The notes beneath the pieces are model-generated. The model searched no databases. It saw nothing but the letters and a program-made list of their open reading frames with translations, and had not been told where the DNA came from. The position numbers and the translations under genes are program-made. DNA of 58,183 bases from a virus (Duplodnaviria; Caudoviricetes), in the IMG/VR virus record IMGVR_UViG_3300032156_000010, positions 1 through 58,183 of that record; one strand, given 5' to 3'. Of this stretch, positions 140-46,174 are shown piece by piece; within the stretch, counting starts at the first letter, position 1, and each line of letters begins with the position of its first letter.

Positions 140-157
140 CTCATAAAGTCGTTAAGA

Positions 158-286
158 CCGGGTGTCGTAGGCGACGGATACTTCGACTTATAATCGAGAG
201 GTCGCGGGTTCGATTCCCGTCTGAGTCTTCGGGCTCGGTAGCTCAGTGGCAGAGCGCTTCCGTACCGTCACCGGCTGTTACCCCGG
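158..286 (+). ncRNA. yrlA: YrlA-like Y RNA with circularly permuted tRNA-like domain
   Basis: Terminal stem CCGGG/CCCGG; GUCGUAGG...UACUUCG...CCGGCUGUU; T arm GCGGG-UUCGAUU-CCCGU precedes an acceptor stem closed by a UUCG loop, then D arm UA-GCUC-AGUGGCA-GAGC; directly upstream of Ro60; followed by a U tract. Confidence 0.85.
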
Positions 287-320
287 CTTTTTTTATTTCA
301 ACAGAGGGAGGGCTTCCACA

Positions 321-1850
321 ATGACACCTTTCAACAAATCCACTCAAGGCTCCGAGAAGACCGTCAATTTTGAGGGCGACCTGGCTTTCAATATGGGGCC
401 CCGAGAGGCGCTCTACGCGCTGGCTTGCACATCGAGCCTCCGGCCGAAATTCTATGTACCGGAAGTGGCGAACGAACTAAAGCGGCTGCGGGCACTGATT
501 AAGCGAGTGCCGGCCGAGTTCGTCGCCAAGCTGGCCGTCTATGTTAGGGAGAAGATGTATCTGCGGACAATGCCGCTGGTACTGGCCGTGGAGCTCTGCA
601 GGGTCCACAAGGGCGACGATCTAGTGCGACGGACCGTCCGGCGGGTCATCAAACGGGCCGACGAACTGGCCGAGATTCTGGCCTACTTTGCGGCGGCCGA
701 GGATCGGATCAGCAGGGATCCGCGGTCGAAGATTTTGAACCGGCTGCCGAAGCAGCTCCGCCTCGGGCTGGCCGACGCCTTTAATACCTTCGACGCATAT
801 CAGCTTGCCAAATACGATCGGGAAACGGCGATCAGACTGCGGGACGTCATGTTCCTTGTCCATCCGAAACCGAAGGATGCGAGCCAGGCCGAGATATTCA
901 AGCGCCTGGCCGAGCAGAGGCTTGAGACGCCCTACACCTGGGAGACCGAATTGTCGGCGAAGGGGAATAAAAAGGAGACCTGGGAGGGGCTGATCGATTC
1001 GGGCAAGGTCGGCTATATGGCCCTGCTGCGAAACTTGCGGAACATTCTCAGAGCTGGCGTCTCCAAGAATCACCTCAAGGCGGTCTGCGACAAGATCAGC
1101 AATTCGGTCGAGGTCGCCAAATCTCGTCAACTTCCCTTTCGGTATTTTTCCGCCTATGTTGAGATCTCCGGCAGCGATCAAGCTGTCTTCGAGAAAGCGG
1201 CCGTTTTATTGGCTCTTGAGGCGGCGACTCTTGCCTCGATCGTCAACGTGGCGATCAGCGAGGAGCGGGTCGTGGTGGCCTGCGATTTTTCGGGTTCCAT
1301 GCAGCACAACGTTTCCGAAAAGTCGGTCATCCAAAACCTGGATATCGGGATCGTCCTTGGGGCTCTCCTGAAAAGCAATCGGAAGACGGCGGTGGTCGGT
1401 ATCTTCGGAGATGAATGGAAGGTGATCGATTTTCCGCCCGGCAATATTCTCGGTAATTGCCTCGCTATGCGGAGACGGATTGGGGAAGTGGGTTATTCGA
1501 CTAACGGCCACCTGGCTGTCGAATGGGCCATCGCGAACAAGATCGAAGCCGATCGTTTTTGCATTTTTACAGATTGCCAACTTTGGGATTCGACCTGGGA
1601 TTTGCCTGTCCGCGGATTAAGAATTTCCGGCTATGGAGCGATGAATGATGCTTGGAACAAATACCAGGCTCTTTATCCCAAGGCCCGGCTGACGCTGTTC
1701 GACTTGACCGGCTACGGGACAACGCCGATTTCACTGAGAAGGCGAGACGTGACGCTGATCGCCGGCTGGTCCGATAAGGTTTTCGATGCCCTGGCCGCGA
1801 TCGAGCGAGGCGAGGAGGCTGTATCGGAAGTCGAAAAGATGGAGATATAG
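321..1850 (+). CDS. rsr: Ro60/Rsr (TROVE + vWA domain) RNA-binding protein
   Basis: TROVE motifs (AKLAVYVREKMYLRT, RADELAEIL, FDAYQLAKYD, LRDVMFLVHPKP, TWETELS, GYMALLRNLRN, SRQLPFRY); vWA DFSGSM and FTDCQ; RBS GGAGG before ATG 321. Confidence 0.95.
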   Translation: MTPFNKSTQGSEKTVNFEGDLAFNMGPREALYALACTSSLRPKFYVPEVANELKRLRALIKRVPAEFVAKLAVYVREKMYLRTMPLVLAVELCRVHKGDDLVRRTVRRVIKRADELAEILAYFAAAEDRISRDPRSKILNRLPKQLRLGLADAFNTFDAYQLAKYDRETAIRLRDVMFLVHPKPKDASQAEIFKRLAEQRLETPYTWETELSAKGNKKETWEGLIDSGKVGYMALLRNLRNILRAGVSKNHLKAVCDKISNSVEVAKSRQLPFRYFSAYVEISGSDQAVFEKAAVLLALEAATLASIVNVAISEERVVVACDFSGSMQHNVSEKSVIQNLDIGIVLGALLKSNRKTAVVGIFGDEWKVIDFPPGNILGNCLAMRRRIGEVGYSTNGHLAVEWAIANKIEADRFCIFTDCQLWDSTWDLPVRGLRISGYGAMNDAWNKYQALYPKARLTLFDLTGYGTTPISLRRRDVTLIAGWSDKVFDALAAIERGEEAVSEVEKMEI

Positions 1851-5077: not shown

Positions 5078-5476
5078 ATGGCGCTTGAAACCGTGAATAT
5101 CAGCAAGGAGCTTCTCGGCCTGATCGGAGCCGGGGTGGCGATGGCGATTTTGGGCCAGGTTTTTATGTTCGTCAAAGTGATCCTAAGATGGGCCGGCGAT
5201 ATGAAAAAGAAAAACGAGCAAAAACGGATCGATGACGAACGGCAGGTTGCCGGCAATCCCGGGCCGCTGGTATCCGCCGCCCCCCTACTGACTAACGGGC
5301 AGTTGAAGTTTGCCATCAGCGAGGGTTTGAAGCCAATGCAAGAAAGCGTGAACGCTTTAAACGTGACGGTCCAAGTGTTGACGTCACAATTTGGGGGATT
5401 CAAAGAGGCCTGCTCTGAGAGGCGCAAGGAAATATGGGGCGCGATCGACGTGAAGCAAAGAAGGGGGAAGGAATGA
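5078..5476 (+). CDS. membrane protein (holin/antiholin-like)
   Basis: N-terminal TM segment followed by basic stretch; lysis neighbourhood. Confidence 0.45.
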   Translation: MALETVNISKELLGLIGAGVAMAILGQVFMFVKVILRWAGDMKKKNEQKRIDDERQVAGNPGPLVSAAPLLTNGQLKFAISEGLKPMQESVNALNVTVQVLTSQFGGFKEACSERRKEIWGAIDVKQRRGKE

Positions 5477-5892
5477 AGGGCAAGGCCAGGACGCCCGATC
5501 TTTATCTATCCATCGTCGAGCATTTCGACGCCGCTCACTTTCTGCCTCGTTACCGGGGCCCCTGTCGCCGAATGCACGGGCACACCTGGCAGGTAAAGGT
5601 GACGGTGACGCCGGAGCCGGATTTGATAATCAAGGACGGGATGCTCATCGATTTCAAGGATTTAAAAAAGATCGTCCGCACTGCCCTTCCCGATCACCGT
5701 CTCATCAACACCTTCCGGCCTTTTTTCAAGGCCAACCCGCCGACGGCCGAGAACGTGGCGCTCTATCTGGCCGAAACGCTGAGGCGAAAATTACACGTCA
5801 AAAAACTCCTCCTGTCGGAGATCGAGGTATGGGAGTCGGAGAAAGCGAGCGCGAAGCTCGTTTGCCCGATCCTGTTCTATGAAAACTCTTAA
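5473..5892 (+). CDS. queD: 6-carboxytetrahydropterin synthase QueD
   Basis: FDAAHFL...CRRMHGHTW...GMLIDF..LK...DH...PTAENVA...VWES. Confidence 0.92.
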   Translation: MKGKARTPDLYLSIVEHFDAAHFLPRYRGPCRRMHGHTWQVKVTVTPEPDLIIKDGMLIDFKDLKKIVRTALPDHRLINTFRPFFKANPPTAENVALYLAETLRRKLHVKKLLLSEIEVWESEKASAKLVCPILFYENS

Positions 5893-6490
5893 CATTAACG
5901 AGTGCTTTTACAGCTTGCAGGGGGAGGGCGCCCGGGCGGGGATGCCGGCTGTTTTTCTCCGCCTGGCCGGGTGTAATCTGCGCTGTGAATTCTGCGACAC
6001 CAAATACGCTTACGACCAAGGCCAGGAATTGACAACCGAAAAGGCTGTCTGTTTGATTCATTCCAAAGCTCAAGCCGTTAATCCGCCCGTATGCAGAAAC
6101 GTCATCATAACCGGCGGCGAACCGGCGATACAAATGGATGGGCTGATGGACCTGGTGAGAAGATTGCGCGGGTGGAAACCGGCCTGGAACATAGGCATTG
6201 AGACAAATGGCACTATCGACATAAGCGGTCTCGGTCTGGACTGGATCACCGTCAGCCCTAAGCCGCCCGCCCCGCTCATCCAACGCACGGGCCATGAGTT
6301 AAAAGTCCTCTTTTTCCCGGAGCTCGAACGAAGAATCGGGATCGAAATTATTCGAAGTACGACCGAGTTTCTTTATCATTTCATCCAACCCGTCAGCATG
6401 AAGAACGTCGAGGCGGTGGTGCTGTATATAAAAAAGCATCCGCATTGGAGGCTGAGTCTACAGTGGCAGAAACTAATCGGTATCAAATAA
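5879..6490 (+). CDS. queE: 7-carboxy-7-deazaguanine synthase QueE (radical SAM)
   Basis: FYSLQGEG...FLRLAGCNLRCEFCDT, ITGGEP, IETNGT, TVSPK, WRLSLQ. Confidence 0.95.
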   Translation: MKTLNINECFYSLQGEGARAGMPAVFLRLAGCNLRCEFCDTKYAYDQGQELTTEKAVCLIHSKAQAVNPPVCRNVIITGGEPAIQMDGLMDLVRRLRGWKPAWNIGIETNGTIDISGLGLDWITVSPKPPAPLIQRTGHELKVLFFPELERRIGIEIIRSTTEFLYHFIQPVSMKNVEAVVLYIKKHPHWRLSLQWQKLIGIK

Positions 6491-39774: not shown

Positions 39775-39909
39775 TCCTTTTGCCTCTCTGGTAGCCAACG
39801 AGGACCCTCAGGATGGGCCTACAAACGCGCCTGGTGCATTTACTGGCGGGGCCTGTGGAGAGGGTCAAGAGCGGGCTCTCAGGGGCTGTAGGGGCAAAAA
39901 AAAAGGCCC
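39775..39909. repeat. right arm of ~130-bp inverted repeat (partner 2325-2458)
   Basis: Reverse complement of 2325-2458 with few mismatches. Confidence 0.9.
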
Positions 39910-39945
39910 GCTGCGGGCCTTTCCCGCAAACGGGCCTTTTCTTTT
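39896..39945. terminator. bidirectional intrinsic terminator between convergent late and early operons
   Basis: A9-GGCCCG...CGGGCC-TTTTCTTTT. Confidence 0.85.
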
Positions 39946-39967
39946 CGGCTAGAATCCTCCTGATCTA

Positions 39968-40765
39968 TCAGGCGTCGTAGGCGTCGCCAGGTTCGCCGCT
40001 CTTAATGCTTTCGACAAAATCATTGATGTTGATGCAGGGATCGTCGCGGAGCCTGATCGCCGCGTTGCAGAGATCGACGAGTTTGCGCTGTTTGTCGAAC
40101 TGTCCGATAAGTGACGTCTGGGCGTGGGTCAGAAAATCAGTGGCGGCGCCGTGAAACGCTCGCAGATTGGATTGGGGATAGACTGTCTCGCGGAGCTGGA
40201 TAAAATCACGGATCGAGGAGCCGGGGATAATCCCGAGCGCGACGGCGGTCAGGGTGAGATAGGAAAATTTCGCCGGATGGAGGCTGTAATCCGTCAGCCC
40301 TGCCTCCCATGCGCCCAAGGCATCGAAGCGAGGGATCGTCTTTTCGATCGCCTCGCAAGATAACGCATAGAGTTCATCGCTTGTCAGGAGTCCCGAATGT
40401 TTACGGAACAGGACCACGTCGCCGCTGAAAGCCAGGTTGTCGCAGACGAAGACCCGCATTCCTACGGCCAGACCGACAGCCATCGACTTGTCCATCGAAT
40501 TTCGGATCCCCAGCGCGAAGCTGCTCTCGAAGCCGTAACGCTTGCCGAAATCCCAAAGGCCAAACATTTTGTGGCCGTTGGCCGAGAGCGAATAAGTCCG
40601 CTTGAGGGGCACTAGGCTCTGCTTTTCGCAGGCGGCACCGATCGTGTCAAGGATTACGGCGTGATGGATGGGGCGCCACGATGCCGTGAAAGGAACCGCG
40701 GACACCGCTCTCACCCTTTCCTCGGTGGTGTAGATAGTATCCCCGTGGGCAATTAAACCGTTCAT
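39968..40765 (-). CDS. DUF932-like protein
   Basis: PIHH, LGIRNSMDKS....LAVGMRVFVCDNLAFSG....RKH. Confidence 0.75.
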   Translation of the reverse strand: MNGLIAHGDTIYTTEERVRAVSAVPFTASWRPIHHAVILDTIGAACEKQSLVPLKRTYSLSANGHKMFGLWDFGKRYGFESSFALGIRNSMDKSMAVGLAVGMRVFVCDNLAFSGDVVLFRKHSGLLTSDELYALSCEAIEKTIPRFDALGAWEAGLTDYSLHPAKFSYLTLTAVALGIIPGSSIRDFIQLRETVYPQSNLRAFHGAATDFLTHAQTSLIGQFDKQRKLVDLCNAAIRLRDDPCININDFVESIKSGEPGDAYDA

Positions 40766-40875
40766 TTAAAACCTCCTTTACCGCGCCTCCCCGCCAAGTC
40801 CTTTCGGACCCCCCCTTTCTGGCTCGGGGCTTTGGGTCGGGCTGAAGACGGGGCCGCGGGGCCCCGCCCTCCTGG

Positions 40876-41124
40876 TCATTTGTCTCGCGTGAATTTGTGC
40901 ATCTTCAAGATAGCTTCACAGGCTTCTCTCACCGCATTCCTGTCCCAAGAATCGAGGAACACAAATAGTGCCGTGGGCAACGTCTTCGTCCAAAAATCCT
41001 TTTTCTCGTGTCCCAACTGCTTCCCCAAGGCCAGAGCCGCGATCTCGAAGGTGTTGATGGTTTTTTGCTCGGCTGCGTAGACTTGTGGCGCTGCTTCTCG
41101 GCCGAGAAAGTGGAAGTCGATCAC
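40876..41124 (-). CDS. hypothetical early protein
   Basis: GTGA overlap with upstream gene. Confidence 0.45.
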   Translation of the reverse strand: MIDFHFLGREAAPQVYAAEQKTINTFEIAALALGKQLGHEKKDFWTKTLPTALFVFLDSWDRNAVREACEAILKMHKFTRDK

Positions 41125-41777
41125 TTCTTCGCTCCGGTGGCTTGCTGGACTTCTTCTTCCTGAATTGCCTCCCGCAGCGGCACCAGCCATTTTTGATCAG
41201 GCCGGCAGCCCTTGGGAAGCGCTTCGAGATAGCCGAGACATCCTTTCGCCGCCGTCAATAGCTTTGACGGTTCCTTCGATTCCTTGGCCGGGAGCTTTTT
41301 CTCCTCCCAACGTCGCCAGCCATCACCCGTAAATTTGCCACCAAGCTCATGCTCGATAACCGCTGCGACGTCGGCCGAGATATTTGGCCACGTTCTTTCT
41401 CCGCACATTCCGCAGATATTCTCGGCCTGGAAAACGTCAGGAAGATCGCTTCGCTCAGCATAGTCGCCGACTACGGCAATCCGATCACCGGCCCAGCGCC
41501 CGATGGTCCGCCTGGCAATCTCTGGATACTCCTCGGGCATGGGGCCTGGGCAGGTGTTGTGCTCGAGAAACGTGCGCTCCGGCCCGTGCCAATTCTTGTC
41601 CATGTCCAGATCGCCGCCGCCTCTCGGCTCCGGCATGGCCGCGCAGAGAACGATGAGCGCCGCCCCCGGGCCCGGATAAGCCGAAAGCTGTTCCGACAAT
41701 TTAAGCCCGGACCCAAGGTCGTGCGGGTTGATGAATTCCCGCTTGTCAAGATTGACCACATACCAATATTGTCCCAT
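41121..41777 (-). CDS. phage-type hypothetical protein (MGQY..VNLDKREF...GRWAGDRI..VGDY)
   Basis: RBS GGAGG; recognisable phage protein motif. Confidence 0.75.
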   Translation of the reverse strand: MGQYWYVVNLDKREFINPHDLGSGLKLSEQLSAYPGPGAALIVLCAAMPEPRGGGDLDMDKNWHGPERTFLEHNTCPGPMPEEYPEIARRTIGRWAGDRIAVVGDYAERSDLPDVFQAENICGMCGERTWPNISADVAAVIEHELGGKFTGDGWRRWEEKKLPAKESKEPSKLLTAAKGCLGYLEALPKGCRPDQKWLVPLREAIQEEEVQQATGAKK

Positions 41778-41880
41778 TTCCTTGACCTCCTTCATTGGCT
41801 CCCCGGCAAGTCCCCGCCGCGGGGGCTCCGCTTTTCCGCCTCAGCGCGGAGGCTCGGGCAGGAGGCGGGCCAGACCCGCC

Positions 41881-42177
41881 TCACCTCACCACATTCCGGC
41901 AATTGACGATAAGATCATTCAGCATCCCGTGAGCATCTTCGCTCGGCGGTTCCGGCAACATCCCGCCATGGATGACATGGTCGGCAAGTTGGCGAAGAAA
42001 AAGACCAAGTTCGGCCGGGATCTCCACATACCGATATCGCCCGGCTGCCATCTTGATCTTCTCTGCCACTCGTTGATCATGGGCCTTGATCCGCTCAACA
42101 ATGATTCGTTTAAACCGGCTACAGTCATTCGTCTTGGGCCGGCCTCTCGGCCGGCGCCCGATGGATTCGTTGTTCAT
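41881..42177 (-). CDS. hypothetical protein with AT-hook-like RPRGRPK
   Basis: ATGA overlap; motif. Confidence 0.6.
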   Translation of the reverse strand: MNNESIGRRPRGRPKTNDCSRFKRIIVERIKAHDQRVAEKIKMAAGRYRYVEIPAELGLFLRQLADHVIHGGMLPEPPSEDAHGMLNDLIVNCRNVVR

Positions 42178-42335
42178 GATTTCAGCCTCAAGTTCCGTAG
42201 CCGTCCGAAAGCGGTGCTGAGTTTAGCCTCGATCCTGTCCCGGCCAGGCCCGTCCGGCTCGCGCCGCAGAGCGGCGACCAGGCTGGCGATCTTTGCGGCC
42301 CTGGCTCCGGTCCCGTTTTTGGATCTCGAACGCAT
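42174..42335 (-). CDS. 53-aa basic protein (not in ORF track)
   Basis: RBS GAGGAGGTTTT; MRSRSKNGTGARAAKIASLVAALRRE...; stop overlaps next ATG. Confidence 0.6.
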   Translation of the reverse strand: MRSRSKNGTGARAAKIASLVAALRREPDGPGRDRIEAKLSTAFGRLRNLRLKS

Positions 42336-42357
42336 TTGAAAACCTCCTCATTGAAAT

Positions 42358-42427
42358 TTGACCTGCCTTTCATCAGCGCCAGGAGGTCAATCCTAGCGGA
42401 CCGGGCCGCTGATGGCCCGGTTTCGGC
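42358..42427 (-). ncRNA. type II hammerhead ribozyme D (AA insertion after core)
   Basis: GCC-GAAA-CCGGGCC..GGCCCGG-UC^CGCUAGGA-UUGACC-UCCUGGCG-CUGAUGA-AA-GGC-A-GGUCAA; loop I/3' pseudoknot; cleavage 42399/42398. Confidence 0.75.
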
Positions 42428-42428
42428 T

Positions 42429-42851
42429 TCATTTGGAAAGGACGCGTTTTTCGGATTCCCTCAAGGCGTGCTCGTAAGTCCGGACAGTTGATTTGATTAA
42501 CGGATTAAGCAATCCCGTCGCCTTCCAGCGCCGCCAGGAATACAAGTTACGGACGATCTGATCTAACATCTCGTCGAAATGCGCGGACGTAATCTCGGAG
42601 GAATCCGATTTGAATTTTTCGAGTACCATCTCATTGATTCTTTTGGTGAAAGATTCGAGGGTCAGATCATGTCCATCCCGCTTGGAGAGATCGACGGCCG
42701 TTAAAGCTGCGGAGATAAAATAGGTTATTCCCGACGCGAACCCGGCCGAAAATGTCCCAGCGTCCTCTTCGAGAAATGAAAGGCCCTTGGCGAGCATTGT
42801 TATGTGAGCCAGGATTAGAGCCGTCGTCCTGATGTGATCTTTGGCTTCCAT
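42429..42851 (-). CDS. hypothetical early protein
   Basis: ORF with RBS, ends at hammerhead D. Confidence 0.65.
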   Translation of the reverse strand: MEAKDHIRTTALILAHITMLAKGLSFLEEDAGTFSAGFASGITYFISAALTAVDLSKRDGHDLTLESFTKRINEMVLEKFKSDSSEITSAHFDEMLDQIVRNLYSWRRWKATGLLNPLIKSTVRTYEHALRESEKRVLSK

Positions 42852-42864
42852 GTCTTTTTTCCTT

Positions 42865-43152
42865 TTAAAAAGCCAAGAGCTTTTTTAGACAGCCGGTATG
42901 GAAAGCCCGCCCTTCCCGCAGCTTGATGTCATCAAGGCCAACCGGTTCGCCGCAATAACCGCAGTAACTCAATCGCCGGATCCCAATGCTGTTCAGCTGG
43001 CCGCCGGCCTCCCTTTCCTTTCGTTCCCGCTCTATGCGGGCTTCCTTGGCTTCAAGACTTCTGACCCGCCTGGCCGCCCGATCCGTCCTCGCTTTGGCGT
43101 CCACCTGGCGCAATAATTCTCGCTGCTGCGCTTTCAATCGGAGCTTTTTCAT
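42865..43152 (-). CDS. basic protein with C-terminal Zn finger
   Basis: CGYC...HTGC. Confidence 0.65.
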   Translation of the reverse strand: MKKLRLKAQQRELLRQVDAKARTDRAARRVRSLEAKEARIERERKEREAGGQLNSIGIRRLSYCGYCGEPVGLDDIKLREGRAFHTGCLKKLLAF

Positions 43153-43155
43153 CTC

Positions 43156-43605
43156 TCAGCCCCCAAACATCTTATTGGTCAGGACACGAAACGCCTCGGT
43201 TGCCGCATTTTTTCTGACGAATATCCGACTTCCCCGCTTGCCGAGCACTGTGCCGGTCGGATAGAGACAGGCCAGGCGGGTGAGCCTTTGCGCATCTTCG
43301 CGGATAATGGCCGTCGCTTCCTCGGGCGTGTGATATTTCGCCCATCCGGCTTTTTTAAACGACTTACGGACTTCGGAGAGAAATTCGCCGGGTGTCATGT
43401 CGGGCTGGTCTTCAATCTTAAATGAGGTCGTCGCCCTCAGGCATTCCATCCCGACCATCGAGCGTCGGCAGCCGCACCGACCGTCCCAGCGGTCGTCGCT
43501 GTCGCACTCCATTGCGAATGTCACCAGTTCGCCTTCGGGTACACAACAGAAGTCCCGTCTGCCCCAATCGCCTTGCGTCTCCTTTGTGGAAACTAATACC
43601 TTCAT
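43156..43605 (-). CDS. Cys-rich hypothetical protein
   Basis: MKVLVSTKETQG...DF...EGELV...CGCRRS; RBS GGAGGTTTT. Confidence 0.75.
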   Translation of the reverse strand: MKVLVSTKETQGDWGRRDFCCVPEGELVTFAMECDSDDRWDGRCGCRRSMVGMECLRATTSFKIEDQPDMTPGEFLSEVRKSFKKAGWAKYHTPEEATAIIREDAQRLTRLACLYPTGTVLGKRGSRIFVRKNAATEAFRVLTNKMFGG

Positions 43606-43627
43606 CGAAAACCTCCTCCTGAAAGAT

Positions 43628-43698
43628 TTGACCTTGCCTCATCAGGTTGTAGACGGTCGGGCTACAACGACCGAGGCCCCGTGGTCCTCGGTTTCGGC
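43628..43698 (-). ncRNA. type II hammerhead ribozyme C (canonical core)
   Basis: GCC-GAAA-CCGAGG..CCUCGG-UC^GUUGUAG..CUACAAC-CUGAUGA-GGC-AA-GGUC; cleavage 43669/43668. Confidence 0.9.
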
Positions 43699-43700
43699 TT

Positions 43701-43919
43701 TCAGCCTTCCTCCTCGTCTTCTTCTTTCGTTGGTTGAAGCTGGGAATAAGTCCAGTTTTTGTAATCGTCGGCGATCCCGAGACAAACCTCGATCAGCGTC
43801 TTTGCTGCCCGCATTTCCTCTTTGGAATCGCTCACCTCGGCGTTCTCCAGCGCCGACCGGCACGCATTCAAGTCTAGGAGCGTATTCTGGAACCGACAAT
43901 AACTCATATTCGCCATCAT
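43701..43919 (-). CDS. small phage-type protein (MANMSYCRFQNT motif)
   Basis: Motif; RBS GGAGG. Confidence 0.75.
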   Translation of the reverse strand: MMANMSYCRFQNTLLDLNACRSALENAEVSDSKEEMRAAKTLIEVCLGIADDYKNWTYSQLQPTKEEDEEEG

Positions 43920-43946
43920 CCCCTCCTTCCTGAACGTCTTCTCCCT

Positions 43947-44276
43947 TTAACAAAGCGGTTCGGTATCAACATATCGACGCTCAAAAGCCGCCATGACCAG
44001 TTTGACGATCCGCCCATTTTCCTGCCTTGCAAAAACGACTTTTTTGTGCCGCAACCTTGTCTTGATGACGGTCAGGCAGGATCCATCTCTCGTAAAGAGC
44101 AGCATCCCTTCCCGAAGTTTTAGGAGCAGGGAGCGAGTTTCCTTTGCGTTTCTCCGGTCGAATGTTTTGGCCGGAATAGCCACAAGTTTCTTGATCTTGG
44201 GCGTCCATTCTGTGGCCTTGAGTTTGCATTTGAACAAAGAACGGAAAAAAGAACCGATCCATTTAATGAGTTTCAT
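43947..44276 (-). CDS. basic hypothetical protein
   Basis: RBS GGAGGTTTT before ATG 44276. Confidence 0.65.
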   Translation of the reverse strand: MKLIKWIGSFFRSLFKCKLKATEWTPKIKKLVAIPAKTFDRRNAKETRSLLLKLREGMLLFTRDGSCLTVIKTRLRHKKVVFARQENGRIVKLVMAAFERRYVDTEPLC

Positions 44277-44298
44277 TCGAAAACCTCCTGAAAAAATT

Positions 44299-44363
44299 TT
44301 GACCCGCCTCGTCAGATCGTGGTCGGTCAAGCCACGATAACCGGGCCGGAGCCCGGTTTCGGC
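44299..44363 (-). ncRNA. type II hammerhead ribozyme B (canonical core)
   Basis: GCC-GAAA-CCGGG..CCCGG-UU^AUCGUGG-CUUGACCGA-CCACGAU-CUGACGA-GGC-G-GGUCAA; 6-bp pseudoknot UUGACC/GGUCAA; cleavage 44339/44338. Confidence 0.9.
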
Positions 44364-44365
44364 TT

Positions 44366-44560
44366 TTAGTGGACGTCGAAATACTCCGTGCACGTCCCGA
44401 GCAAATTGTCGTAATCGCCGGACATCGCCTTCTTCATAAATTCGTCCAGCCTTTCCTTCGACCAGCCGGCTTTCTTGGCCGCCCTAGATGCCAGGCCCAA
44501 GACCACGAAGGCGTTGCCGTCCTGTCCGATCAGCGTAAGTTTCGGCTTTGTCTCGTTCAT
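44366..44560 (-). CDS. small phage-type protein (GQDGNAF...MSGDYDNLL motif)
   Basis: Motif. Confidence 0.8.
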   Translation of the reverse strand: MNETKPKLTLIGQDGNAFVVLGLASRAAKKAGWSKERLDEFMKKAMSGDYDNLLGTCTEYFDVH

Positions 44561-44901
44561 GATGATCTCCTGATTCGCCGCTGTTCCTTCCTGTACCAGA
44601 GCCGATCCTCATGCCTTCCGATATCCAAATTCTCCCAATCTGCGAGTTGGCAATCGGGCCGCTCAAACCGTTCGGCCATTATTGGCATTGCGGCATAAGG
44701 ACAAAACACGTCGTCCCGGCTGCAGGAAAATTCCTGTGGGTCGCCGGCCCGGGCAGGACACTCTTTTTTCCCCCGTTCTCGCATCCGCCCATCCATGTAA
44801 CCCCTGCAAAAATCTTTGGGGCCGACCGCCAGCACCGGGATGCCCCGCCGTTCGTGATCCACGCCCCGCGCAAAGCCATCTGTGTACATTTTTTTGACCA
44901 T
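44557..44901 (-). CDS. Cys-rich hypothetical protein
   Basis: RBS GGAGGTTTT; ATGA overlap with next gene. Confidence 0.65.
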   Translation of the reverse strand: MVKKMYTDGFARGVDHERRGIPVLAVGPKDFCRGYMDGRMRERGKKECPARAGDPQEFSCSRDDVFCPYAAMPIMAERFERPDCQLADWENLDIGRHEDRLWYRKEQRRIRRSS

Positions 44902-44921
44902 TGAAAACCTCCTTCGAAAAT

Positions 44922-44990
44922 TTGACTTGCCTCATCGGGCTGCGCGTTGTCATCGCGCAGCGACAGGCCCCGGCGGGGGCCTGTTTCGGC
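44922..44990 (-). ncRNA. type II hammerhead ribozyme A (U4C core variant CCGAUGA)
   Basis: GCC-GAAA-CAGGCCCC..GGGGCCUG-UC^GCUGCGCG-AUGACAA-CGCGCAGC-CCGAUGA-GGC-AA-GUCA; cleavage 44962/44961. Confidence 0.8.
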
Positions 44991-44992
44991 TT

Positions 44993-45412
44993 TCAGATTA
45001 TCCCGGCCGTGATCAGCCAGGATTGGAAACCGTGCGGACATTGGCCATCGGGTTCAACCCGGCAGCCGTCCGTTGCCTTGGCTACGCCATCCATCGCCCA
45101 TCGTTCCATCGTATGGAGTGAAGGTTGACGGATTCCGGCACTACTGATGAAGCCCTGTTTGTCGTGATAGAACTGGAAAAATCGGGTCGTCATTTCTGCC
45201 TGTGTAAATGCCCATTCTTTTTTGTAGCGCCGCCACAACTTCCATTCTCCTAAGAGTGTCTTCCGCAGGATTTCGCCGTCGCTCATGAGGGCAATCAGCG
45301 ACCCTGATTTCGGGTTGAACAGCCGGACAAGTTCCTTCTTGACATTCTTCGTGTGTGGATGCTTTTTTATATACAGCACCACCGCCTCGTGTACGCTCAT
45401 CGATTTTGCCAT
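44993..45412 (-). CDS. first gene of left operon; C-terminal ATDGCRVEPDGxCPHG Zn-binding motif
   Basis: RBS AAGGAGG; motif. Confidence 0.75.
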   Translation of the reverse strand: MAKSMSVHEAVVLYIKKHPHTKNVKKELVRLFNPKSGSLIALMSDGEILRKTLLGEWKLWRRYKKEWAFTQAEMTTRFFQFYHDKQGFISSAGIRQPSLHTMERWAMDGVAKATDGCRVEPDGQCPHGFQSWLITAGII

Positions 45413-45782
45413 CCTGAACCTCCTTAAAAATTTTTATTGGCGCCCTCTCGCACCGGCTACCTAAACCGGCCCCTTTTATTGCGCCGTCAGAGCAAGGCGA
45501 GAGCGGGCAGCGGCCAGTAGGCGCTGACCGTGATCTGCCCATTCGGAGGTTTTGGAGGTTTGTTGTGCTGGTGAATGATTTTCGGTACCTGGCAAATTTT
45601 TACCGCTGCCCCGACGTCTGTTCGGTCTCCTTAGGCTGTCGGGAATATCCCGAATCCGCCGAGACCGTCAGCCGGACAGCGTCATCCGCCGTCCCTACTC
45701 ACCACATTCTTTCTGCGCCTGACGATCAGACCTGGCCTTAGCCGTTCCGTCCGTCCCCTCTGCCTTGGGGCCCGTCAGGCTT

Positions 45783-45813
45783 TTTTCAAAGATCAATTGC
45801 TACGCCCGGTAGC
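45783..45813 (-). promoter_or_regulatory. boxB-like hairpin plus boxA antitermination site
   Basis: GCUAC-CGGGC-GUAGC hairpin then UGAUCUUUGAAAA just after the predicted TSS. Confidence 0.7.
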
Positions 45814-45820
45814 TGCTTAT

Positions 45821-45849
45821 ATAATAAGTATATCCATTAGTATTGTCAA
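45821..45849 (-). promoter_or_regulatory. leftward sigma70 promoter
   Basis: TTGACA (45849-44), 17 bp, TATTAT (45826-21). Confidence 0.8.
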
Positions 45850-45922
45850 GACTCTACAGACAATTTATGGAAAATAATCAACTCCGTAAGTTTCTTAAAT
45901 TAAAGGGGTTACGCTTTTTGGG

Positions 45923-45982: not shown

Positions 45983-46174
45983 ATGAGGCAGAAAATCGGG
46001 GAGCCCAAAAGCTCCACCATAACATTCACCCTTGAGCCCTCGCTGAGGGCCAGGTTGGAGACGCAGGCAAGGCAGGAGGGCCGGTCGGTGTCGAGCATGA
46101 TCAGACAGCTTGTGATGACCGCCCTCCATCGAGAAGTCCGCCCGCTCGAGACGCGGACTCCGGCTCCGAAATAA
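45983..46174 (+). CDS. ribbon-helix-helix (CopG/Arc-like) regulator
   Basis: ITFTLEPSLRARLETQARQEGRSVSSMIRQLV; RBS AAGGAGG. Confidence 0.88.
   Translation: MRQKIGEPKSSTITFTLEPSLRARLETQARQEGRSVSSMIRQLVMTALHREVRPLETRTPAPK

Follow-up and report, generated by a model that had tools for sequence, protein, structure and literature searches.

The question raised by this locus is whether four short intergenic elements, arranged in the same direction within one phage operon, are genuine self-cleaving ribozymes, and whether they divide the operon RNA into separate mRNA pieces. The window, that is, the whole 58-kb stretch of DNA that was analysed, is a complete phage record with direct terminal repeats and genes for portal, terminase, tape measure and protease proteins. 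The operon is located on the minus strand and extends over approximately 5.9 kb; it opens with a sigma-70-like promoter at about 45.8 kb and closes with a terminator-like hairpin at about 39.9 kb. It contains 14 small genes, three with family matches (DUF7715, phrog_1933 and phrog_8760) and none with a known function. It is divergent from an Arc-like repressor gene and replication genes, and this layout together with the promoter-like site suggests early transcription. The features are given below in the direction of transcription.

45821..45849, minus strand: candidate sigma-70-like operon promoter, TTGACA-17-TATTAT, 11 of 12 consensus matches, by consensus match only
44993..45412, minus strand: operon gene 1, 139 aa, stop codon adjoining hammerhead A
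44921..44991, minus strand: predicted type II hammerhead A; RF02276 31.6 bits, whole-window E 0.017, below the gathering score
44903..44912, minus strand: ribosome-binding site and spacer GGAGGUUUUC 3' of A; start codon 44901
44366..44901, minus strand: module A to B, genes 44557-44901 (114 aa) and 44366-44560 (64 aa, phrog_1933)
44298..44364, minus strand: predicted type II hammerhead B; RF02276 37.7 bits, whole-window E 4.1e-4, at or above the gathering score
44279..44288, minus strand: ribosome-binding site and spacer GGAGGUUUUC 3' of B; start codon 44276
43701..44276, minus strand: module B to C, genes 43947-44276 (109 aa) and 43701-43919 (72 aa, phrog_8760)
43628..43699, minus strand: predicted type II hammerhead C; RF02276 29.4 bits, whole-window E 0.061, below the gathering score
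43607..43616, minus strand: ribosome-binding site and spacer GGAGGUUUUC 3' of C; start codon 43605
42429..43605, minus strand: module C to D, genes 43156-43605 (149 aa, DUF7715), 42865-43152 (95 aa) and 42429-42851 (140 aa)
42357..42428, minus strand: predicted type II hammerhead D; RF02276 46.3 bits, whole-window E 2.3e-6, top scorer of the four
42338..42347, minus strand: ribosome-binding site and spacer GGAGGUUUUC 3' of D; start codon 42335
39968..42335, minus strand: distal module 3' of D, five genes (53, 98, 224, 104 and 265 aa)
39894..39924, minus strand: terminator-like hairpin rich in GC, with a run of U after it, read from the sequence

It can be observed that the four hammerheads lie within 2.6 kb on a single strand and bound modules of two, two and three genes, while no hammerhead was found between the five genes of the distal module. 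No family match was found for the product of gene 1. The GC hairpin is likely the end of the operon; it is absent from the terminator-scan output. A weak match to a ctRNA-like hairpin was also recorded there, and at the other end the operon promoter candidate is overlapped by a divergent plus-strand promoter candidate at 45797-45825.

An Infernal search with the Rfam hammerhead II model had been proposed in an earlier, sequence-only reading of this DNA. When Rfam cmscan was applied with Hammerhead_II (RF02276, curated gathering score 37 bits), all four elements were matched over the full length of the model (positions 1-66 of 66), each in an intergenic position, but only B and D reached the gathering score. 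The boundaries given by that reading differ from the Rfam matches by at most 1 nt at each end. When the search was restricted to the hammerhead region alone, E values ranged from 2.4e-7 to 6.3e-3. With a model constructed from the four copies and the filters switched off, no fifth copy was found in the window, the next match scoring 12.8 bits (E 0.3). The window carries neither twister-sister nor pistol ribozymes.

The anatomy of each element was then compared with the core defined in the Methods of Perreault et al. 2011 (PMC3088659), namely C3 U4 G5 A6 N7 G8 A9, G12 A13 A14, A15.1-U16.1 and H17. Element A is parsed as a 9-bp stem III, site GUC, an 8-bp stem I, core CCGAUGA, stem II GCC/GGC and pseudoknot UGAC/GUCA; B as a 7-bp stem III, site GUU, a 7-bp stem I, core CUGACGA and pseudoknot UUGACC/GGUCAA; C as a 7-bp stem III, site GUC, a 7-bp stem I, core CUGAUGA and pseudoknot GACC/GGUC; and D as an 8-bp stem III, site GUC, an 8-bp stem I, core CUGAUGA followed by AA, and pseudoknot UUGACC/GGUCAA. 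In all four, stems I (7-8 bp) and III (7-9 bp) are closed by loops and stem II is open with 3 bp. The pseudoknot pairs loop I with the tail that follows stem II on its 3' side, and most type II members have one; against a requirement of at least 4 bp, it comprises 4, 6, 4 and 6 bp in A, B, C and D, respectively. The element order and the loop-I/tail pseudoknot first seen by eye were thus recovered in every copy. The core is canonical throughout in B and C. In A, position 4 is occupied by C (U4C), and in D two nucleotides, AA, are inserted between A9 and stem II (G10.1), the rest being canonical. The motif CYGANGA, as which the core had been described, is present in all four, while these two deviations were overlooked. 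Regarding predicted folding, the minimum-free-energy fold of A is the hammerhead fold (z -3.83); for B and D the nested minimum-free-energy folds favour alternative pairings (-32.8 against -26.5 kcal/mol in B), the pseudoknot lying outside the fold model.

The scores of A and C below the gathering threshold, and a hairpin with a T run marked within B by the terminator scan, could be taken to imply non-catalytic hairpin repeats, acting as stabilisers, terminators or protein-binding sites, whose likeness to hammerheads arose by chance. Such an origin is scarcely credible: GAAA, the NUH site and CYGANGA occur in the correct order and register with a pseudoknot in four of four elements, window-wide E values descend to 2.3e-6, and the core bases would be needless for such repeats. 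The evidence supports the assignment of all four, by their sequences, as genuine pseudoknotted type II hammerhead ribozymes in one co-oriented operon.

The stems were described in the sequence-only reading as differing almost completely among copies, and this description applies to a different degree to each stem. In stem I, both sides changed at 7 of 7 positions while all 28 cells remained paired. Stem III agrees in part, with compensatory changes at 4 of 7 positions and with B identical to D over the seven shared pairs. Stem II does not agree, GCC/GGC being invariant in the four copies. A larger sample of 56 elements (54 distinct) was drawn from the window and 21 phage loci: 93.2% of its cells are paired compared with 65.4% in shuffles, none of the 500 shuffles reached 93.2%, and the covariation score is 0.637 compared with 0.146. 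The pseudoknot also covaries in this sample, although it is absent from the search model (for example, AU 39 and GC 8 at columns 90/117). Core nucleotides that are kept while stems covary point to selection on the RNA fold and not on DNA repeats.

Each hammerhead takes up the whole gap from a stop codon to the next ribosome-binding site. The stop codon ends 0-1 nt ahead of the first A of the model in the four elements, and behind each of them stands the exact 10-mer GGAGGTTTTC, which occurs four times in the window and nowhere else; the placement between upstream stop codon and ribosome-binding site proposed earlier is thereby borne out. The spacing is similarly tight across the family sample: of 43 elements, 32 have the stop codon -2 to +5 nt away from the ribozyme, and 37 are followed within 35 nt by a ribosome-binding site and start codon. 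In a second explanation, hammerhead and ribosome-binding site would be mainly a duplicative junction cassette that spreads with accessory genes or helps them recombine, cleavage being a neutral or minor by-product. Repetition is indeed confined to the intergenic unit, of which the 10-mer is a private mark, since an all-against-all comparison of 13 operon proteins revealed no paralogues (E > 0.1 for every pair); moreover, closely similar units separate unrelated genes elsewhere, in 21 further phage loci as well as in genomes from several phyla. The distribution is also patchy. Conservation in related phages had been put forward as a check, and the array proved absent: no type II hammerhead was found at E <= 0.01 in any of seven phage records with the neighbouring exonuclease (39-51% identity), and no Rfam ribozyme at the gathering threshold in nine loci with a phrog_1933 homologue. 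The four-hammerhead array is not conserved. We nevertheless consider a mere cassette improbable, given that the catalytic core is kept while the stems covary and that homologous tracts between copies reach only about 9-20 nt.

The preferred reading, to which we assign a probability of roughly 75%, is that the operon RNA is cut at the four hammerheads into mRNA pieces, so that stability and translation are uncoupled; the identity of the motif, its layout and its covariation are shown by the sequences, whereas cutting inside cells, early expression and any advantage are inferred. Each transcribed element would fold and cleave after H17, at 44962 (A), 44339 (B), 43669 (C) and 42399 (D), in exact agreement with the positions first predicted, and the predicted piece sizes of 623, 670 and 1270 nt follow from these. 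Hammerhead cleavage leaves a 2',3'-cyclic phosphate and a 5'-OH. Since the hammerheads are of type II, a GC-rich stem III hairpin bearing the cyclic phosphate would close the upstream piece, and the downstream piece would begin with the 5'-OH on a stem I hairpin with the pseudoknot, approximately 20 nt ahead of its own ribosome-binding site. The products would be joined only by the 3-bp stem II and therefore should separate. Five pieces would result, namely the leader with gene 1, the three internal pieces, and about 2.5 kb of distal RNA, each with a stability and a translation independent of the others. Predicted accessibility of the ribosome-binding site after cleavage increases for C and D and not for A and B, so that a benefit for translation is not clearly supported in silico. 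Any protection of the pieces by the 5'-OH is host-dependent; in Bacillus subtilis, cleavage by the glmS ribozyme leaves a 5'-OH product that is made unstable by way of RNase J1. In the synthetic insulator of the RiboJ type, which is engineered and derived from a satellite RNA, a hammerhead before the ribosome-binding site removes upstream RNA, and the downstream gene gains a constant hairpin 5' end; compared with RiboJ, the arrangement in the window is natural and repeated within the operon. A self-dicing polycistronic mRNA, as already proposed in print for such arrays, is a plausible interpretation here in view of the cleavage of other arrays described in PMC3088659 (see below). A look-up of sequencing runs for this DNA listed no RNA run.

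The core deviations suggest that the four sites may differ in rate. U4C "considerably decreases activity in vitro", and insertions near the pseudoknot or changes in stem II can reduce rates by orders of magnitude, according to the text of PMC3088659; the same source cites a viroid U4C variant that kept enough activity in vivo. Judged by sequence, A and perhaps D may therefore cleave more slowly than B and C. This opens a further explanation, graded or conditional processing, in which B and C would be cut fast and A and D slowly or only under certain conditions, leaving the junctions before the 114-aa gene and the distal five genes largely uncut or cut later, as a timed or stoichiometric programme. 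Apart from C4 in A and AA after A9 in D, it draws on the suggestion in PMC3088659 that slower phage variants might gain activity under particular conditions, and on the presence of U4C with intact stems in 7 of 56 family elements (six outside the window), which suggests that the change is tolerated or selected, although this frequency is biased, two of the six outside copies having been fetched by a pattern permitting C at position 4. The AA insertion occurs in D alone among the 56, a single U being found at the same place in four. However, D has the highest Rfam score (46.3 bits). Graded processing is thus regarded as possible but doubtful.

Of the internal pieces that the preferred reading predicts, a further fate can be imagined, in which either a host ligase of the RtcB type or the hammerhead reaction run in reverse rejoins them, giving circular or spliced RNAs. 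A piece has stem I, CUGAUGA and GGC at its 5' end, and GCC, GAAA, stem III and GUC>p at its 3' end; since stem II is identical in the four copies, the two ends could together restore a chimeric hammerhead, and this would position the 5'-OH and the cyclic phosphate for joining by ribozyme or host ligase, to which established end chemistry would be suited. If so, they would be phage mRNAs that resist exonucleases, and the ribosome-binding site of each would lie internally. Nevertheless, spliced and circular products were sought by Perreault et al. (PMC3088659) in other arrays, and neither was detected; RtcB is not encoded among the genes of the window, and 3 bp alone must close loops of 550-1200 nt. 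In the eight-copy array L026, furthermore, adjacent stem II strands are mismatched (GAC/GCC, GAC/ACC, from an alignment read by eye), so that compatibility between copies is no general feature. Rejoining is very improbable, and equally so the closure of the 623-, 670- and 1270-nt pieces into circular mRNAs.

Comparison with known systems places these results in context. Clustered hammerheads that flank genes in prophages were described by Perreault et al. 2011 (PMC3088659), who proposed mRNA processing; in transcripts of about 2 kb with three tandem hammerheads from three bacteria, all sites were cleaved in vitro, and in one array also in E. coli, as the paper recounts. The criterion taken from that work, several co-oriented hammerheads flanking genes or short blocks in phage DNA, describes the window. 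Like the prophage arrays of Agrobacterium tumefaciens, Azorhizobium caulinodans and Clostridium scindens, it has clustered copies around single genes or short blocks of varying identity, and its pseudoknot from loop I to the 3' tail is that of the type II forms reported there. Unlike the arrays in the text of that paper, it has four copies, one with U4C and one with AA, in a complete metagenomic phage genome, and its flanked genes are unrelated and do not include ardA. Both the arrangement and the mechanism suggested for it had been published in PMC3088659, where the circle idea was likewise raised, and the sequence-only reading overstates the novelty; the value of the present check is mainly corrective. 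For Desulfovibrio vulgaris, PMC8782182 describes cleavage in cells of three type II hammerheads that have hypothetical and phage-like genes nearby, both ends of the cut being captured from cellular RNA by cyPhyRNA-seq; the window copies resemble them in type and setting, are known from sequence, and form an array in one operon instead of occupying three separate genome locations. In haloviruses HF1/HF2, HHphage is found just a few nucleotides 5' of the first ORF in a polycistronic phage transcript of the early class, with a mapped 5' end near the cleavage site, and differs as a single variant ribozyme of an archaeal virus that depends on high salt, as portrayed in PMC3088659. A 2019 review (PMC6765202) states that the purpose of hammerheads in phage DNA calls for additional work. 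This phage provides a compact test case, with a complete genome, one promoter-like site and one operon, and with two canonical copies, one U4C and one insertion, all of them placed alike between a stop codon and a ribosome-binding site.

Longer hammerhead arrays are easily found in public phage contigs. In IMG/VR, type II arrays of 8 (L026), 7 (L018), 6 (L014), 5 (L011) and 6 copies (L019+L020) were observed, sharing with the window the cassette of stop codon, AGCCGAAAC, stem III, GUC, stem I, CUGAUGA, GGC, GUCAA tail and ribosome-binding site. Their modules also consist of 1-3 small genes, except for seven ORFs after the first L011 copy. They differ from the window in having more copies, in some loci in carrying twister-sister or pistol ribozymes, and in having no homologous genes except for one weak match: the 114-aa gene after A resembles the ORF directly 3' of a hammerhead in L014 (E 7.7e-4).

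The four elements on the minus strand of the operon, designated A to D in 5' to 3' order, are confirmed as type II hammerhead ribozymes. The Rfam model Hammerhead_II (RF02276) matches all of them full-length on that strand, also when the whole record is searched, in agreement with what had been claimed from the sequence alone. Regarding the gathering score of 37 bits, D and B pass, and A and C fall below it. The elements and their surroundings are listed below.

Features of the hammerhead operon and its flanks (position, strand, description)
~0.2-39.7 kb, plus: block with a Ro60/TROVE gene; QueD- and QueE-like genes; terminase; portal, protease fusion and tape measure protein
39924-39894, minus: GC hairpin followed by a U run
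45412 down to 39968, minus: hammerhead operon of 14 small ORFs, between two plus-strand blocks
42357-42428, minus: hammerhead D, RF02276 46.3 bits
43628-43699, minus: hammerhead C, RF02276 29.4 bits
44298-44364, minus: hammerhead B, RF02276 37.7 bits
44921-44991, minus: hammerhead A, RF02276 31.6 bits
45849-45821, minus: sigma-70-like promoter candidate upstream of the operon, TTGACA-17-TATTAT, 11/12 matches
46 kb onward, plus: Arc-like repressor, Cas4-like exonuclease, then replisome organiser and ParB

It can be observed that every element parses with a stem II of GCC/GGC followed by GAAA, a stem III hairpin of 7-9 bp, a stem I hairpin of 7-8 bp and a pseudoknot of 4-6 bp between loop I and the 3' tail. 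The cleavage-site triplet is GUC in A, C and D and GUU in B. H17, the nucleotide after which cleavage is predicted, lies at 44962 (A), 44339 (B), 43669 (C) and 42399 (D), giving predicted pieces of 623, 670 and 1270 nt, the same sites and sizes as in the sequence-only reading. The stems had also been described as differing almost completely while retaining their pairing. This holds for stem I, in which 7/7 shared positions are changed on both sides with 28/28 cells paired across the four copies; stem III varies at only 4/7 positions, and stem II is invariant. A covariance model made from the four copies, run on the window with filters off, found no fifth hammerhead there, the next best match scoring 12.8 bits.

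Relatives were collected with a pattern from the shared motifs, which was run on IMG/VR and retrieved 21 loci. In these loci, 39 type II hammerheads reach the gathering score of the Rfam model, and the four-copy model gives 56 matches in the window and the loci together. In the 56-match alignment the three stems and the pseudoknot covary strongly, with pairing in 93.2% of cells versus 65.4% in shuffles (0/500 reach 93.2%) and falling to 27-41% when partners are slid by 1-3 columns; because the stems guided the fitting of the alignment, their counts lean toward structure, while those for the pseudoknot, which was left out of the search model, do not. Larger arrays are present in other phage loci: eight copies within ~4.3 kb in L026, seven in L018 (six by our own model, one by Rfam only), six in L014, six in L019 and L020 together, and five in L011. 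Rfam also recognizes two twister-sister ribozymes (L010, 9252-9326; L024, 3322-3396) and one pistol ribozyme (L015, 324-400) in the same 21 loci, each within a few kb of type II hammerheads.

The core box is CUGANGA in B, C and D. The core of A reads CCGAUGA, with C at position 4 (U4C), and in D an AA is inserted between CUGAUGA and GGC; the sequence-only reading had overlooked both. Of the 56 related elements collected, U4C occurs in seven, six of them outside the window, a frequency biased for pattern-matched copies since both pyrimidines were permitted at position 4 in the fetching pattern. In 4/56, A9 is followed by a single U, and the AA insertion is found in D alone. According to Perreault et al. 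(PMC3088659), a U4C variant "considerably decreases activity in vitro", with viroid infectivity retained.

The upstream stop codon ends 0-1 nt before each element, measured to the first A of the model, and the exact 10-mer GGAGGTTTTC follows each of the four and is absent from the rest of the window, bearing out the tight junction with the stop codon and the ribosome-binding site behind. In the family sample, 32/43 elements have a stop codon at -2 to +5 nt relative to the ribozyme, and 37/43 have a ribosome-binding site with start codon at most 35 nt away. The tight layout of stop codon, ribozyme and ribosome-binding site is general in this sample. The modules between neighbouring hammerheads in four other arrays contain 1-3 small ORFs, with the exception of seven after the first L011 copy. 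Their ORFs mostly belong to no known family; ten genes from other arrays included one resolvase and one DUF2786/DUF7168 gene.

When a hammerhead cleaves, the end at H17 carries a 2',3'-cyclic phosphate and the following nucleotide a 5'-OH. With the helices in type II order, the stem III hairpin would remain in the 5' product and the stem I hairpin in the 3' product, which would also contain the whole pseudoknot; as only the 3-bp stem II joins both products, they should part. The upstream piece would then end in a GC-rich hairpin ~30 nt beyond its stop codon, and the downstream piece would have a structured 5'-OH terminus, with its ribosome-binding site ~20 nt further on. The RNases of the host would determine whether the pieces are stabilized or destabilized. 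RNase E-type enzymes favour 5'-monophosphate ends; in Bacillus subtilis, cleavage of the glmS ribozyme yields a 5'-OH product that is degraded by RNase J1. A genome scan located the motif in metagenome-assembled genomes of Planctomycetaceae, Actinomycetes, Clostridia, Chloroflexota-type and Bacteroidota-type bacteria. Pseudoknot-free folding gave a mixed picture of how cleavage would affect ribosome-binding-site accessibility, with changes from 0.20 to 0.19 for A, 0.29 to 0.33 for B, 0.39 to 0.59 for C and 0.17 to 0.57 for D. The proposed self-dicing early mRNA is partly supported: the hammerhead identity stands, and cleavage, early timing and benefit are predicted. A longer stem II, in which the stop-codon flank would pair with the U-rich sequence ahead of the ribosome-binding site, was considered and rejected: the duplex reaches 6 bp in element C, and its mean over 43 elements is -2.77 kcal/mol versus -2.45 kcal/mol for permuted partners, equalled in 58/500 permutations.

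The only family matches among the operon genes are DUF7715, phrog_1933 and phrog_8760; searches for functions in NCBIfam and PDB sequences returned zero matches, and all-vs-all comparison of 13 operon proteins revealed no paralogy. No homologues of the operon proteins were present in the 21 hammerhead loci except for one weak match, no relatives of the DUF7715 protein were found in viral contigs, and the operon DNA gave only a 44-nt match to INPHARED phages. Conservation in related phages, proposed as a check in the sequence-only reading, did not appear: RF02276 at E <= 0.01 was found in 0/7 phage records sharing the neighbouring exonuclease (39-51% identity). Furthermore, Rfam ribozymes at the gathering threshold were found in 0/9 loci with phrog_1933 homologues. 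The lack of homologues and paralogues, together with the 0/7 related records, indicates that only the cassette of hammerhead and ribosome-binding site is repeated, with a patchy occurrence among phages. The one weak match links the 114-aa gene after A to an ORF of L014 (3079-3246, plus strand; 39% identity over 59 aa, E 7.7e-4) that follows a hammerhead directly, a hint that ribozymes may move as a unit with the genes behind them.

Arrays of this type have been described. Perreault et al. (2011, PMC3088659) state that single genes or short gene blocks of prophages are often bordered by multiple hammerheads, and that long phage transcripts are perhaps processed to operon- or gene-length mRNAs; three tandem arrays cut at all sites in vitro, one also in E. 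coli, and spliced or circular products were considered, with none detected. The mechanism of the sequence-only reading, circles included, was therefore already in print, and the present case adds four members to a published type of hammerhead array. In a 2019 review (PMC6765202) the processing idea is repeated and the purpose is said to remain undefined, and PMC8782182 reports that three type II hammerheads near phage-like genes of D. vulgaris cleave in vivo. Searches of open-access text yielded no later paper that addresses what such arrays do in phages. Regarding circular mRNAs, the invariant stem II would allow chimeric hammerheads to form between copies. Such circles are nonetheless rated highly improbable, owing to the published search that detected none, the weakness of a 3-bp closure, and L026, where the stem II strands of neighbouring copies do not match in the alignment read by eye. 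An RtcB encoded by the phage was looked for and none was found.

Within the operon (39850-45900), Rfam at E <= 10 gave no other ribozyme classes. Two GC-rich spacers of ~85-110 nt in the distal operon, 40766-40875 and 41796-41880 (minus strand), are without an Rfam match; the folds of 41796-41884 and 40763-40880 are no more stable than those of shuffled sequences (z -0.82 and -1.10, respectively). At its end, the spacer at 40766-40875 has GGAGGTTTTA, which differs from the cassette 10-mer by one mismatch, and it contains a GGGGCC-CCGC-GGCCCC-GUC hairpin and a GCCCGACC stretch resembling one in element C. It may represent a decayed hammerhead cassette.

The operon leader before the first gene (45413-45560, minus strand) folds better than its shuffles (z -3.03, 0/200); in this fold the ribosome-binding site ahead of the 139-aa gene, GGAGGUU, is paired with AACCUCC at the 5' end of the leader. 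That same stretch (AAAACCUCC) also complements the GGAGGUUUU motif behind each hammerhead, and 13 one-mismatch matches occur in the window versus 5.8 expected. The AACCUCC stretch may be an anti-ribosome-binding-site element, or chance. Divergent promoter-like sites occupy both strands of 45797-45849 with overlapping -10 regions (TATAAT on the plus and TATTAT on the minus strand), and the first plus-side gene beside them is the Arc-like repressor gene (45983-46174), a layout that resembles a genetic switch.

The record, of 58,183 bp, is that of a complete virus and carries direct repeats at its termini. Sequencing runs listed for this DNA comprise two DNA runs of sediment metagenomes, one of them possibly the source, and no RNA run. 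Near its start, a tRNA-like RNA at 155-230 (plus strand; tRNA-Ile TAT by ARAGORN, 29.5 bits with the Rfam tRNA model) extends into a Y-RNA-like match to YrlA at 171-274 (plus strand; 36.7 bits against a gathering score of 69). Directly behind, 246-1850 (plus strand) encodes a Ro60/TROVE protein that includes a vWA domain. The whole of 155-1850 looks like a phage-borne Ro60 and Y-RNA module. A link between this module and the ribozymes was rejected, a TROVE domain being present in 0/18 other hammerhead-bearing phage records. Moreover, adjoining QueD-like (PTPS, 1e-31) and QueE-like (radical SAM, 4Fe-4S) genes at 5434-6490 on the plus strand suggest a 7-deazaguanine pathway, which is used by phages for DNA modification.
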